A stretch of 64,000 nucleotides of DNA, from the NCBI GenBank assembly GCA_050950505.1, contig JBMNHS010000001.1, positions 1,056,001 to 1,120,000 of the forward strand, read 5' to 3'. This document shows positions 12,842 to 48,978 of this stretch, one piece after another. The number at the start of each line of letters is the position of its first letter. The first letter of the stretch is position 1. The translations under genes were made by a program, and so were the position numbers. Origin of the DNA: Candidatus Methanomethylophilaceae archaeon (GTDB taxonomy: Archaea; Thermoplasmatota; Thermoplasmata; Methanomassiliicoccales; Methanomethylophilaceae). Below the pieces are notes generated by a model, which saw nothing but the letters and a program-made list of their open reading frames with translations, did no database searches and was not told where the DNA came from.

Positions 12842-12928
12842 TGGTGCGGGGGATGGGATTTGAACCCACGAACCACTAAGGACAGGATCCTAAGTCCTGC
12901 GCCGTTGGCCGGGCTTGGCAACCCCCGC
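12842..12928 (-). tRNA. tRNA-Leu (anticodon TAG)
   Basis: GCGGGGG acceptor, CAGGA-CTTAGGA-TCCTG anticodon arm, long variable arm, GGTTCAAATCC, encoded CCA. Confidence 0.95.
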
Positions 12929-31721: not shown

Positions 31722-32648
31722 ATGGAAAAAGGCAGTGTGACGAAAACCGATGAGATCCAAGACAATGTATGGATTAACATGGTTCGACCCACTGCTGAAG
31801 AAATAAACGAAATCAGCCTCAGACTCGATATCGAAAAAAGCGTTATAACGGCATCCTTGGACGATGAAGAGGAATCCAGAATAGAGATGGAAGTCGATTA
31901 TTCATTGATTCTTGTTGACGCGCCCGCCGTGGAAATCAGAAACCAGCGGGAGGAGTATACTACGTACCCTTTGTCCATAATCATGACTCCCAACATAATC
32001 GTCACCGTATCTTTGTACGATTTCCGTTCCATCGGGTCAATAATCGACAATAAAAAACAGGCACATGTGGTGAACGTGGAAAACAGAACGAATTTTGCCA
32101 TGGTTATTTTATACAGGATTGCGACCCAATATCAGAATTATTTGAAGCTTATCGCGAAGAAACGTATGGCGATCGAAGCTTCTATCCGCAACAAAACCCA
32201 ACGTAGCGATCTTTTCGAACTTCACGAATTGGAGTCCAACCTCGTTTATTTCAAAACATCCCTCAGTGTCAATCTTTCCATCGTTGAAAGATTGGCCAGA
32301 CAATTCAAATTCATGACCGACCCCGAAGACAGAGATCTTCTGGAAGAGGTCACCGTCGAAACCGAACAGGCTTTGAAGATGACCACGACTTACAGTGAAA
32401 TCGTAAGAGGTACACGACAGCTTGTGCAGGCGGACATCAACAACACTGCAACGGGCATCATGAAGTTTTTGACATCCATAACATTGGTTGTTTCAATACC
32501 TACGATGATTTCCGGTATTTTCGGTATGAACTTCGACTTCATCCCCGGTACTCAGCACCCTGCGGGATTCATGGTCACCGTTTTGCTGATGATTGTGATT
32601 ATCTATTTCAGCATCAGATATTTGCGTAAGCAGGATCTGTGGCGTTAA
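31722..32648 (+). CDS. corA: CorA family Mg/Co transporter (possible ACG start at 31704)
   Basis: WINMVRPT, LDDEEESRIE, GIFGMNF, two C-terminal TM. Confidence 0.92.
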   Translation: MEKGSVTKTDEIQDNVWINMVRPTAEEINEISLRLDIEKSVITASLDDEEESRIEMEVDYSLILVDAPAVEIRNQREEYTTYPLSIIMTPNIIVTVSLYDFRSIGSIIDNKKQAHVVNVENRTNFAMVILYRIATQYQNYLKLIAKKRMAIEASIRNKTQRSDLFELHELESNLVYFKTSLSVNLSIVERLARQFKFMTDPEDRDLLEEVTVETEQALKMTTTYSEIVRGTRQLVQADINNTATGIMKFLTSITLVVSIPTMISGIFGMNFDFIPGTQHPAGFMVTVLLMIVIIYFSIRYLRKQDLWR

Positions 32649-32916
32649 CGAACCGTATCGTCCGCCAATCCTATCGGATTCATTGCCTAGGATTAACAAT
32701 TATCGCATCTGTGCTCATCAAAACCGTTCATATAAGCATCGGATGCTGTGAAGGCATTTCTCAACCAATCAATTGGTGGTTGTCATTCAATTAACGGATC
32801 GATGAGATTCCAAAAATTCCGGCCAGAATCTTATGTCTGTATTCTGTGACGGTATGTGTTACGGTCATTGGATGTAACTTAGATAATTCTTTATACCTAA
32901 ACCTCGTAATATATGT

Positions 32917-33149
32917 TGCACGCGTGGAGTTCGCAAGGATGAACAAAGAAGAATTGTCTTCTGAACGTCCGGAGCCCCACAACACCCAGGAACGGATGAT
33001 ACCATCTCAGTGCGTTACACCCGTATGCTGTGTGTGAAGATTCTTCTGCGGAGGATGAAGTGCAGGCGTAGAAAGGCTTCGGAGGGACCTCTCATGGAGA
33101 CATTCCCTCTTCGAAGTAACAACGACCTGCATCAGGCTTCACGCGTGCA
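32917..33149 (+). ncRNA. Unidentified structured ncRNA candidate
   Basis: 15-bp terminal stem, internal stems, TTTATA at 32890, TTTT at 33151. Confidence 0.55.
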
Positions 33150-33163
33150 GTTTTCAAGTCTTC

Positions 33164-35254
33164 TCAGAAACTTTGACCTTTGCGGCGATCGGCAAGTTCT
33201 CCCTTCTTACCCTTGTTCCATCCGGATATCTTGGAAAAGAATCCCGTTACTCTTGTGATGCCTTCAACGTTGTCCGAATCGCAGTAAGGGCAGTTCTCGG
33301 ACAATCCCCGGGAAGTTCTGGAGCAATCGAGACAGGACGTGAATTCCGGACTGAAAGCAATCTGTCCGTTCTGTGTCTTCTCGAAGGTGCTCTTGACGAA
33401 TGCGGCAACACTTTCGGCGGAAGGTTTGGATTCTCCCAACCACACATGAGTAAGCGCTCCGGCGTCAATGATGGGGTGGAACATCCCTTCAAACCTGACT
33501 CTTTCGACGGGACTAACGTCGGCTCCGACGTTCAGATACGAGGAGTTGGTGTAATACACATTGCCGGCATCTTTGTCGCCCTTGACGACAGATCCCGCCT
33601 CTCTCGGATAATCCCTCAAATCCAATTTTGCGAGTCTGTATACGGTGGACTCCCCCGGAGTCTGTTCCAAAGTCAGTTTCAACCCGTCCCTCTTAGAAAG
33701 TTCTTGGGTTTTCTGCCTCATGTGGGAGATTACCTTCAGTCCGAACATCAAAGCATCCTTGGATTCATGCATTTCCTTGCCGGTATGATACTGAACCAAT
33801 TCGTTCAGGCCCAGAACCCCTACGAGGTAAGATGATTTTTCTATTCTGTAATACGGTTCACCGTCAAGATTCATTGTCAGCATGCTCAAGGGACCGTTGT
33901 TGCCCAACAGGAGAAGTTCCTGGATAAAGTCTCTTTTTTGACTGTGGGCTTTTGAAACCAACTCCAGAGCTTCGTCCAGATTGGAAAACAATTCTTCATC
34001 GCTGCCCGAGGACATATATGCTATTCTGGGGAGATTGACTGTAACGTTCTGCATTGCGGAGAATCTCATCTTCCAGGGGGTCTTTGCATCTTCAAGATCG
34101 GTGTCGTCCAAATTGAACGAGAGTCTGCAGCATTCGGATATCCTTGCGGTGTCGCCTCTGTCGAACACGAAATATGTGTTGCCCATCTCGGCGGCAAGTT
34201 TGCATATTTTATCCAAAAATTCTTCATGGCCCGGTGTTTCGAACATACGTTCGGTGATGTGAACCTGAGGCTTAGGGAAGAAGAACGGTCTTCCGTTCGC
34301 ATCCCCTTCCAAGTAGACCTCCATCAAAGCCATGGCAAATCTCTGAGATTCCTCTTCATAGTCTTCGTAGTTCTTTCCGGTATATTCTCCTCCGGGGCCG
34401 ATTGCGGGAACACCGACAAAATGTTTCGGTGTTTCCCAATAAATGTTGATGTCGCTGAATATCGACTGTCCGCCCCGGGCGACTGCCTGCTGGGCATATT
34501 CGTAAACAAGGATCTGTGCCAACTGATGCATTCTCTTGTCGTCCACATCAACCAGGTAAGGGGCAAGGAAGACGTTGAACGCATCCCATCCGATGGCGCC
34601 GGCGTAGTGTCCCTGCAGGGCTGCGGAAAATTTCACAATTTGTTCTATCAGGACTTCGGGGTGTCTTGCGGGTTTGGCGATGGACATGGCGTTCGGAAGG
34701 TTGAGACCGAACTTTTTAACGTATTCAATAGACTGTCCGCTGCAATAGGGGCGGTCAATCATGCCCAAATCGTGGAGATGGATAAGCCCTGTCATGTGTG
34801 CGTCAGCGACGTCGGGAGTGAAAACTTCCAGCAGAGCAAATTCTTTCTTGATGTTTTCTGCCAAGGTAAGATTGGTGGCTTCGGGCCCGTGGGGAACGTT
34901 TGCATTTTCTTTGTTGGGGGCCATTATGATTTCTCTCGCGTCATATATCGGAACTCCCAAACGGGTATGCTGTTTCCTGATGTCTTCGAGACCTCTCTCC
35001 ATAAGTTTGGCGTTTGTCAATTCTCTTATAAGGGGGGCGGTTATGTAATTGACATCGATCTGTTTTATCATACGGTCTACGTCGTTGGCGATGATCATGG
35101 CATTGAGTTCGGAAATATCCGTCTCTCTGAGCAGAACATCATAAATTCTCTTTTTATCCCACTTCTTGAGATCTTCATCTGAAGATCTCACAAACAATCC
35201 TATGTCTGTCGATTCGGCACCTTTCTTGATTATATTCTCTGTGTCCGTATGCAT
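33164..35254 (-). CDS. nrdD: Anaerobic ribonucleoside-triphosphate reductase (class III)
   Basis: ATP cone, HLHDL, PYCSG, SECCRL, EQTPGES, CxxC..CPYC, TRVTGFF. Confidence 0.95.
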   Translation of the reverse strand: MHTDTENIIKKGAESTDIGLFVRSSDEDLKKWDKKRIYDVLLRETDISELNAMIIANDVDRMIKQIDVNYITAPLIRELTNAKLMERGLEDIRKQHTRLGVPIYDAREIIMAPNKENANVPHGPEATNLTLAENIKKEFALLEVFTPDVADAHMTGLIHLHDLGMIDRPYCSGQSIEYVKKFGLNLPNAMSIAKPARHPEVLIEQIVKFSAALQGHYAGAIGWDAFNVFLAPYLVDVDDKRMHQLAQILVYEYAQQAVARGGQSIFSDINIYWETPKHFVGVPAIGPGGEYTGKNYEDYEEESQRFAMALMEVYLEGDANGRPFFFPKPQVHITERMFETPGHEEFLDKICKLAAEMGNTYFVFDRGDTARISECCRLSFNLDDTDLEDAKTPWKMRFSAMQNVTVNLPRIAYMSSGSDEELFSNLDEALELVSKAHSQKRDFIQELLLLGNNGPLSMLTMNLDGEPYYRIEKSSYLVGVLGLNELVQYHTGKEMHESKDALMFGLKVISHMRQKTQELSKRDGLKLTLEQTPGESTVYRLAKLDLRDYPREAGSVVKGDKDAGNVYYTNSSYLNVGADVSPVERVRFEGMFHPIIDAGALTHVWLGESKPSAESVAAFVKSTFEKTQNGQIAFSPEFTSCLDCSRTSRGLSENCPYCDSDNVEGITRVTGFFSKISGWNKGKKGELADRRKGQSF

Positions 35255-37135: not shown

Positions 37136-37142
37136 AGAAAGT

Positions 37143-37446
37143 GTTTGGCCACATGGGTTGACTCCGAATCCGGATCAAGTTGTCCGCGGCGTTTCTCGAC
37201 CCTGCGATCCCGCAAACGTCAGTAGTTCAGAGTAAGGCTGCTCCCGTCAGGACCTGGCCCGGTTTCCCCGATTAATACGGTTCAGCGATCCTCCGACCGC
37301 TTACATCGTACACACTGGCTCTGCAGGACAAGATCTCATTGTCCCGATGCGGGCTTGAACGTTCAACGGGGCCGTCCCATGCTGTCACCCCAGCATATCG
37401 ACGATTTCAGGTATAGGGCACGCCGACCTCCCCGGTCAAGCCAAAC
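37143..37446 (-). ncRNA. ffs: Archaeal SRP RNA (7S)
   Basis: ~304 nt, GTTTGGC/GCCAAAC helix 1, Alu-like 5' domain, helix 6 GGAG loop, helix 8 CCAGG..AGCAG. Confidence 0.93.
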
Positions 37447-37486
37447 GATTCTTTACCTACGACGATGTATTTAACCGCTTTCAAAA

Positions 37487-48890: not shown

Positions 48891-48978
48891 TGGCGCGGAG
48901 AGAGGGATTTGAACCCCCGAGGCAGAATGCCACCGGTTTTCAAGACCGGCGCCGTGGTCCGGGCTTAGCTATCTCCGC
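48891..48978 (-). tRNA. tRNA-Ser (anticodon TGA)
   Basis: GCGGAGA acceptor, CCGGT-CTTGAAA-ACCGG, long variable arm, GGTTCAAATCC, GCCA end. Confidence 0.95.

Follow-up and report, generated by a model that had tools for sequence, protein, structure and literature searches.

The 64,000-nucleotide (nt) stretch of DNA analyzed here (the window), from a Candidatus Methanomethylophilaceae archaeon, contains a CorA-family gene on the forward strand (31722-32648; Pfam CorA, 155.8 bits) that converges on nrdD, the gene encoding the anaerobic ribonucleotide reductase, on the reverse strand (33164-35254; Pfam NRDD, 475.9 bits). The 515 nt between the two contain no credible open reading frame (ORF) and hold a gene of approximately 232 nt for a structured noncoding RNA (ncRNA), which lies on the forward strand with its own TATA box and a 12-bp closing helix (Table 1). 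An ncRNA gene between corA and nrdD had been proposed in an initial annotation made from the sequence alone, and the fold score and the covariation among 29 to 31 homologues bear this out: the gene almost certainly encodes a real, independent, structured ncRNA of a new family. The family was previously uncatalogued and, as far as it has been searched for, is confined to two related genera of one Methanomassiliicoccales family, methanogens of guts and digesters (referred to below as g1 and g9), from which 31 copies in 18 genomes were collected.

The likely 5' end of the RNA is G32918, where one contig from an RNA library also begins, and the 3' end lies at or just past 33149, ahead of a short T run and 14 nt from the nrdD stop codon. 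Most family members are followed within 35 nt by T-rich stretches, which are not uniform. The ends of the gene form an inverted repeat, TGCACGCGTGGAG (32917-32929) opposite CTTCACGCGTGCA (33137-33149), which is 13 nt long and 92% complementary and is the sole one between 32600 and 33300. The strings from which the gene had originally been recognized are all in place, including TTTATA at 32890, the terminal repeat, TTTT at 33151-33154, and GGATGA at 32937, 32994, and 33053.

Table 1. Features of the RNA gene and its promoter, in window coordinates
Feature	Position	Strand	Remarks
Upstream promoter element TGGATGTAAC	32869-32878	+	21 nt before TATA box; 48-49 nt before RNA 5' end
TATA box TTTATA	32890-32895	+	A/T-rich stretch resembling a TFB recognition element (BRE-like) ahead at 32884-32889
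RNA gene	32918-33149	+	Covariance model match 32917-33149 at 234 bits; conservation onset 32917/32918; fold z = -5.36
P1 5' strand GCACGCGUGGAG	32918-32929	+	Pairs with 33137-33148; also inverted repeat
P2, two pairs	32933-32934 with 32974-32975	+	Flanks P3
P3 domain	32937-32970	+	GGAUG 32937-32941 with CGUCC 32966-32970; double changes in 5/5 pairs
Conserved junction strand AGCCCCACA	32973-32981	+	Family consensus GCCCYRYA
P4, P5, and variable apex	32982-33035	+	P4 32982-32989 with 33028-33035; P5 32993-32995 with 33021-33023
Kink-turn-like element	33036-33058	+	Bulge GAA 33036-33038; G-A 33039-33040; U 33041; P6; U-G-A 33056-33058
3' domain	33060-33132	+	P7 33060-33062 with 33130-33132; P8 33064-33069 with 33122-33128; P9 ~33076-33117
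P1 3' strand CUUCACGCGUGC	33137-33148	+	Partner of 32918-32929
T run, candidate termination signal	33151-33154	+	Convergent nrdD stop codon at 33164

Fold, covariation, and strand of the RNA

The forward strand of the gene folds with a predicted minimum free energy of -92.7 kcal/mol, compared with -69.8 +/- 4.3 kcal/mol for 200 shuffled sequences, none of which folded as well; the z score of the reverse strand is -3.36. A MAFFT alignment of nine copies (A2) shows invariant blocks between helices that carry compensatory substitutions and indels of 1 to 26 nt, and RNAalifold run on the nine-sequence MAFFT alignment yields 57 base pairs, 24 of them with double changes. Among 29 model-aligned copies, 91.7% of 1,581 cells are paired and 38 of the 57 pairs show double changes. 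None of 500 shuffles of these 29 sequences reached any of the five covariation measures, which are statistics without tree awareness, and a control in which the partners were slid by 1 to 3 columns left only 28 to 55% of the cells paired. A naive all-against-all column screen for pseudoknots returned 695 pairs in which phylogenetic signal was dominant and was discarded.

The RNA is assigned to the forward strand because G.U cells far outnumber A.C cells (185 versus 46), so that pairing reaches 91.7% on that strand and 82.9% on the other. On the reverse strand of 32917-33149, hardly any stop codons occur in any of the three frames in most members, a property that follows from the rarity of UUA, CUA, and UCA in the RNA and that could mislead gene callers into predicting small ORFs. 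The stop-poor open frame on that strand differs between homologues and the indels are not multiples of three; the shifting frame marks an effect of composition and thus excludes protein coding.

The fold is modeled as a five-way junction of helices P1, P2/P3, P4/P5, P6, and P7 to P9. P1 is rich in G+C and comprises 12 pairs, with 97.4% of cells paired, double changes in four pairs, and five pairs invariant; its GCACGCG/CGCGUGC portion is nearly invariant, and the inner pairs covary. It is followed directly by an AUCGCA joiner. Inside P3 lie an internal loop that is conserved (AAC.AA /.GAA) and an apical hairpin that varies, here a short GAAGA/UCUUC, the apex being 24 to 26 nt shorter than in most homologues. 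Between P3 and P4 runs the joiner GCCCCACA; in the junction strand, positions G58, C59 to C61, C64, and A65 show either no variation or conservation of at least 90% among 24 divergent members. P4 has eight pairs, 95.6% of cells paired, and double changes in four pairs, whereas in the P6 hairpin (33042-33046 with 33051-33055) all three consensus pairs covary and 100% of cells are paired. Double changes occur in two of three pairs of P7, three of six of P8, and all 12 of the long hairpin P9, from which the chain returns to P1 through (C)AUCAGG here and CGUAAGG in most members. The joining strands (AUCGCA, GCCCYRYA, GAAGA/UGAAG, and CGUAAGG) are the most conserved parts of the molecule, and the outer hairpins vary freely. 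Four of the five helical arms drawn in the initial annotation lie in the covarying consensus (the terminal stem, GAAGA/TCTTC, TGCAGGCGT/ACGACCTGCA, and CTTCGGAGGGA/TCCCTCTTCGAAG); the fifth, TTCGCA/TGCGGA, does not, TGCGGA being the loop and 3' strand of the kink-turn hairpin.

Distribution of the family and comparison with known RNAs

Of 41 related genomes searched with BLASTN, 8 gave a match to the stretch. R1, a covariance model built from the nine-copy alignment, matched 18 of 151 genomes of the archaeal family at full length; by genus, these fell in 13 of 15 genomes of g1 (G000 excluded), all four of g9, and none of 131 genomes in 17 other genera. As with all of the home-made models used here, its E values are rough. 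A broader model, R2, found nothing credible in 16 other genera among the 41 relatives; its matches outside g1 and g9 (15.3 bits in G017, 13.7 in G029, and 15 in G007) lie inside coding sequence and were counted as chance. A pattern scan of the genomes of 185,579 species returned 12 archaeal stretches, all from Methanomassiliicoccales or Methanomethylophilaceae-type archaea, together with two bacterial stretches that do not score with the model and were likewise set aside as chance. Nine loci from a metagenome scan score like species already collected and add no diversity, and a scan of viral contigs gave no matches. The DNA stretch itself is present in metagenomes from digesters, bioreactors, landfills, and wastewater.

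Family members are 222 to 270 nt long and occur in one to three copies per genome in unrelated contexts. One type of paralogue lies between corA and nrdD, at the window locus and in five other species, in one of them as a tandem pair; a second, in seven species, lies between genes for chorismate synthase and a GHMP kinase; a third, in genus g9, between genes for a nitrogenase-like protein and an ACT protein; and a fourth beside an opuA-like transporter gene (OpuAC), with or without a zinc-ribbon gene, including several tandem pairs. Synteny is stable across species within each type, and in all contexts examined the gene that follows the RNA is encoded on the other strand. The neighbors share no function, and their shifting identity indicates that the RNA is an autonomous gene.

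The window genome carries a second, much diverged copy at C1:894336-894557 (+) (equivalent to L011:1539-1760), which scores 42.5 bits with R1 and 103 bits with R2. This copy has the same promoter element; a tRNA gene lies approximately 150 nt upstream of it, and an opuA-like gene (permease plus OpuAC) converges on it. Tandem RNA pairs, 240 to 600 nt apart, were seen in four species (L014:656-911 and 1501-1752; L037:894-1160 and 1501-1769; L038:892-1160 and 1501-1769; L046:1380-1606 and 1863-2104). The zinc-ribbon protein encoded beside some copies is approximately 195 amino acids (aa) long (L033:902-1486 (+), L041:1795-2382 (-), and L079 to L087). It has its zinc ribbon at the N terminus, and its C-terminal region, which is conserved, belongs to no Pfam family. 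Its gene converges on a D/E-type RNA gene where checked, except in G001, where no RNA lies beside it. As an obligate partner of the RNA this protein was rejected, being full length in only 9 of 15 g1 genomes and missing from G000 and from g9.

Rfam 15 contains no match to the RNA, whether in the whole window at gathering thresholds, in 32600-33250 at E values of up to 10, or in 12 homologous loci, in keeping with the novelty that the initial annotation had claimed. Hits to Gut-1 (15.4 bits) and sR52 (12.2 bits, E = 7.5, gathering score of 50) were regarded as noise. Equally sound was its view that the gene does not encode a tRNA, 5S rRNA, signal recognition particle (SRP) RNA, or RNase P RNA. 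The RNase P model RF00373 has its sole match in the genome at C1:804398-804688 (205.6 bits) and nothing in 32600-33250 at E values of up to 10; the canonical SRP RNA gene lies elsewhere in the window (37142-37447, reverse strand; 157 bits) and that for 5S rRNA elsewhere in the genome (89.8 bits). RNase P and SRP sequences read by eye showed no resemblance to the RNA, and ARAGORN found no tRNA or tmRNA gene in 32500-33400, an interval that also gave no Rfam tRNA hit. Two long tRNA genes of 84 to 85 nt are present in the window at 48894-48978 (-) and 12845-12928 (-). Like archaeal RNase P RNA, SRP RNA, and 5S rRNA, the RNA is stably structured with paired 5' and 3' ends, but it matches none of their models, and the canonical copies are elsewhere.

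Other known classes fit no better. A Y RNA bound by Ro was rejected because PF05731 (TROVE) has no match in the genome, which is 99.6% complete. Against a box C/D sRNA stand the occurrence of RUGAUGA in only 1 of 31 members, the lack of a CUGA at a conserved position, ends that form a perfect 12-bp helix, the length (222 to 270 nt, compared with approximately 50 to 70 nt), and a best C/D model hit (sR52) far below its gathering score. More generally, the RNA has none of the boxes, guide regions, or pseudouridylation pockets of box C/D and H/ACA sRNAs and is much larger (230 to 270 nt versus 50 to 70 nt). It shares with cobalamin riboswitches and B12-riboswitch small RNAs (sRNAs) a multiway junction with a kink-turn, the link to corrinoid genes being made here only through the promoter element; unlike them, it has no B12 box, no cis-regulated downstream gene, and no switching P1, and a cobalamin riboswitch was rejected because none of 13 loci gave an Rfam hit at E values of up to 10 and because the downstream gene is convergent in every context.

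Bacteria possess several orphan classes of large structured ncRNA, among them OLE, GOLLD, ROOL, raiA, and HEARO. The RNA resembles these in its complex, covarying multihelix fold, its narrow lineage, its own transcription unit, and a function that is not evident from sequence; it differs in being archaeal, in having no sequence or Rfam relationship to them, in being smaller than most, and in having a family-specific promoter element. No paper describing the RNA was found in the literature searched. The ncRNAs listed for three other Methanomassiliicoccales genomes in the consulted part of one report comprise only a group II intron, SRP RNA, and RNase P (PMC4153887), and Table S1 in Additional file 1 of that report might hold further Rfam hits.

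The kink-turn-like element and the promoter

The corner between P4 and P6 contains an element resembling a kink-turn, in which a 3-nt bulge (G33036-A-A) is followed by G33039.A33058, A33040.G33057, and U33041.U33056. P4 forms the canonical, Watson-Crick (C) helix 5' of the bulge, and the nonbulged strand runs on into P7. By reading of the alignment, the G.A/A.G signature is canonical in 21 of the 31 members, has A at position 2n in five, and is lacking in the five most divergent. Definitions of kink-turns and k-junctions were taken from passages of PMC4005666, PMC4316175, PMC5061560, and PMC10573300; A at 2n is a variant listed for natural kink-turns in a table in PMC4316175, and the k-junction as described in the relevant passage of PMC4005666 fits the C helix and the entry of the nonbulged strand into P7, save for two extra helices here. 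RNAs in which L7Ae binds a kink-turn or k-junction, such as box C/D and H/ACA sRNAs, rRNA, and RNase P RNA (for the last, see the pertinent passage of PMC4245976), have a similar C helix 5' of the bulge and a similar passage of the nonbulged strand into another helix; they are built on a duplex or a three-way junction rather than a five-way junction, and in the RNA described here 5 of 31 members have no signature.

According to the consulted part of PMC4382518, folding of a kink-turn in ions alone requires 3n = G or 3b = C. The 3b/3n position in most members is U.U or A-U, which suggests that the kink may need protein or tertiary contacts to fold. Kink-turns serve to recruit L7Ae in many archaeal RNA-protein particles described in the literature, and the window genome has two genes of the L7Ae family, one of them at C1:510449-510727. 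The kink-turn-like element is probably functional, either bound by protein or as part of the architecture. Specific binding of the RNA by L7Ae can be proposed from these sequence features only tentatively, with chances a little short of even.

The initial annotation had based L7Ae binding on three spaced box-C-like GGATGA motifs and one CTGA, a basis that falls away, since two of the motifs and the CTGA are not conserved across the family. GGATGA is indeed locally enriched (three within 122 nt, compared with 41 on both strands of the window), but the 57- to 59-nt periodicity is not conserved: among the 31 members, the third site is kept in 19, the first in 2, and the second only in the window genome. 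The conserved GGAUGA is the nonbulged, box-D-like strand of the kink-turn and not a C box.

The promoter is shared by the family. Every copy has a TATA-like hexamer 22 to 28 nt ahead of the conserved 5' end, a spacing typical of archaeal promoters. Farther upstream, at the same distance throughout, is the element TGGATGYAAC, which is exact in 23 of the 31 members, has one mismatch in six and two in one, and is absent from one, the downstream copy of the tandem pair in L014. Between the two copies in the window genome, the upstream region is better conserved than the body of the RNA, and in that genome the element and a TATA box at the right spacing occur solely at these two genes. In the same genome, the promoters of the genes for SRP RNA and RNase P RNA, read by eye, do not have TGGATGYAAC.

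The pattern TGGATGYAAC-N9-13-TWWAWA occurs in 45 of the 151 family genomes, and its reversed control gave one match. In g1 and g9, all matches are at the RNA genes; the pattern is also found in 29 genomes of seven other genera. Among 29 such loci that were examined, 23 are followed within 450 nt by the start of an ORF of 80 aa or more, and 20 of these ORFs were run against Pfam. Five encode B12-binding corrinoid proteins, one encodes MttB, and one encodes CobW, all above Pfam cutoffs; the MttB locus also has a PYLIS_3 match. Six loci (L094, L095, L096, L097, L101, and L114) have the element and a TATA box with no ORF within 450 nt, and one (L110) has only an 82-aa ORF at 390 nt; none of the seven is similar to the RNA family, and the stretch downstream in L094 folds no better than shuffled sequences (z = -0.69).

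In the window genome, a 10-mer form of the element, TGGATATAAC, lies upstream of one B12-binding protein gene. The same genome has ten TGGAT-N5-ATCCA palindromes (C1:41693, 117450, 863782, 865526, 870387, 874757, 899490, and 1026951; C2:22344 and 148239), which precede genes for CbiD, a corrin methylase, CobN, FecCD, two ABC ATPases, and a B12-binding protein, several of them between divergent genes. The palindrome is thus a candidate for the operator of a corrinoid regulon. The five-mers TGGAT or ATCCA that lie before seven of the eight corrinoid-protein genes examined in this genome are near chance expectation and were not used as evidence, the exceptions being the 10-mer at one gene and the full palindrome at another. 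The element common to the RNA genes and to genes for corrinoid proteins, MttB, and CobW points to coregulation of the RNA with corrinoid methyl-transfer and cobalamin genes, a possibility that we hold tentatively and just below an even chance.

Contigs from three RNA libraries, each from a different study, lie wholly within the gene (32948-33126, 32918-33072, and 32929-33084), and none of the RNA-library contigs within the gene extends beyond 32917 or 33149; the second has a loose 14-nt end before 32918. A library from a fourth study covers only nrdD, and gaps in RNA-library coverage outside the gene were given no weight as signs of absence. These contigs are consistent with, and a weak hint of, a discrete and relatively abundant transcript starting at G32918. 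A further contig (run X19, record 4) matches only 33021-33091, with six differences, and is unlike the window at both ends; it is probably the version of the same RNA from a relative or a paralogue.

Interpretation and alternative explanations

The gene, its strand, its fold, its distribution, and its promoter architecture are established by the data above. Our best guess at the function is that of the RNA of a trans-acting RNA-protein particle, coregulated with the genes of corrinoid methyl transfer. The RNA would be transcribed independently from a start approximately 22 nt downstream of the end of the TATA box and would act in trans through its shape, as the core of such a particle. On this account L7Ae is the likely protein on the kink-turn, and a further partner may bind the invariant P1 and junction; the upstream signal carried by the RNA genes may be that of a corrinoid and methyl-transfer regulon. 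Taken as a combined statement, with these steps kept conditional, this account is in our judgment rather probable.

Several points weigh against it. Two of the 15 g1 genomes, 92% and 73% complete, have no R1 match. The 29-copy alignment (A3) was fitted to the structure of the model, which favors pairing; the MAFFT-based covariation is independent of that fit and agrees with it in direction. The RNA-library data are assembled contigs, from which neither transcription nor the ends of a transcript can be proved. The five most divergent paralogues, the second copy in the window genome among them, have no kink-turn signature, and P1 and P2/P3 join the same junction, making it five-way rather than three-way, so that it is no textbook kink-turn or k-junction. 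On the side of the promoter, 12 of the 20 ORFs downstream of the element are unrelated to corrinoids or have no Pfam match, one more (in L106) matches Peripla_BP_2 below the cutoff, and the first batch of ten ORFs was picked partly by eye. The palindromes and the RNA element of the window genome have only the TGGAT half-site in common, and the element could merely mark strong promoters. L7Ae binding, action in trans, membership in the regulon, and any role in corrinoid metabolism are matters that we infer.

The last of the promoter points leads to a less likely competitor, that the RNA is a housekeeping particle RNA with a lineage-specific role in RNA processing or translation and that TGGATGYAAC is a generic strong-promoter or activator sequence unconnected with corrinoids. 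Genes for corrinoid proteins rank among those with the highest expression in methylotrophic methanogens, and a strong-promoter element common to them and the RNA would therefore look much the same; both the 12 noncorrinoid ORFs and the presence of a kink-turn signature and L7Ae genes accord with this view. Against it, the element is missing from the SRP and RNase P RNA genes of the window genome and occurs there, with its TATA box, solely at the two RNA genes, and the 7 corrinoid-pathway ORFs among 20 are far above the genome share. Alternatively, the five-way junction might be an aptamer, for example for a corrinoid, in a trans-acting, ligand-sensing RNA that sequesters a ligand or regulator. 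Bacterial sRNAs that contain a B12 riboswitch would be the closest analogue. The promoter link to corrinoid genes applies here too, and the pattern of highly conserved junction strands and variable peripheral helices is that of riboswitch aptamers, in several of which, cobalamin riboswitches included, kink-turns serve as architecture (passages of PMC4316175). Direct ligand sensing nevertheless appears improbable, given that no riboswitch in Rfam matches the locus or its 12 homologous loci at E values of up to 10, and that P1 is a very stable 12-bp helix without an expression platform, the RNA being followed in all contexts examined by a gene on the opposite strand.

Two further readings seem very improbable. 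The RNA could be a cis-antisense regulator whose read-through into the convergent neighbor, here nrdD, lowers the expression of that neighbor, as the convergent orientation in all types examined, the short gap to the stop codon, and the short T runs past the RNA would allow. The neighbor differs between types, however (nrdD, GHMP kinase, ACT protein, zinc-ribbon protein, or opuA-like genes), a conserved fold of 230 to 270 nt with 38 covarying pairs is not needed for read-through, and the RNA-library contigs end within the gene. Equally remote is the chance that this is no new kind of RNA and is instead a miniature transposable element, a small protein gene, or a very divergent known RNA. The 13-nt terminal inverted repeat with its palindrome CACGCGTG and the presence of several copies per genome would suit a miniature inverted-repeat element, and some members are free of stop codons over their whole length on the reverse strand, as a protein gene would be. 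The repeat-element possibility is countered by the low copy number (no more than three per genome), by the conserved synteny, and by a conserved promoter that lies outside the repeat; a protein gene is countered by stop-poor sequence in all three reverse frames and a shifting open frame, which reflect composition and not coding. Also against this group of readings, internal helices covary with strand-specific G.U pairs, and there is no matching Rfam family, no ARAGORN tRNA, and no match in viral contigs.

Large, strongly covarying structured RNAs without a known family are rare in archaea, and to our knowledge each earlier bacterial orphan class of such RNAs eventually revealed new biochemistry. 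The 31 sequences, the consensus fold, the mapped promoter elements, and the likely 5' end define the RNA well enough for work at the bench. On the most far-reaching reading, which we consider unlikely, it would be the first RNA in the archaea with a regulatory or sensing role in the regulon of corrinoids (vitamin B12) and methylotrophic methanogenesis, acting in trans by binding a corrinoid or a regulator of corrinoid-dependent methyl transfer and transcribed from the same operator-bearing type of promoter as the corrinoid-protein genes. Archaea are not known to have cobalamin riboswitches, a gap that such a sensor would close. Should the promoter link prove false, a new kink-turn RNA of archaea would remain, with protein partners that merit a search. 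Corrinoid-dependent methyl transfer is the energy metabolism of the Methanomassiliicoccales, which produce methane in guts, digesters, and landfills. If the promoter link is true, the RNA and its promoter would supply a candidate operator (TGGATGYAAC, TGGAT-N5-ATCCA) for a transcription factor and a direct handle on the regulation of methylotrophic methanogenesis in this order.

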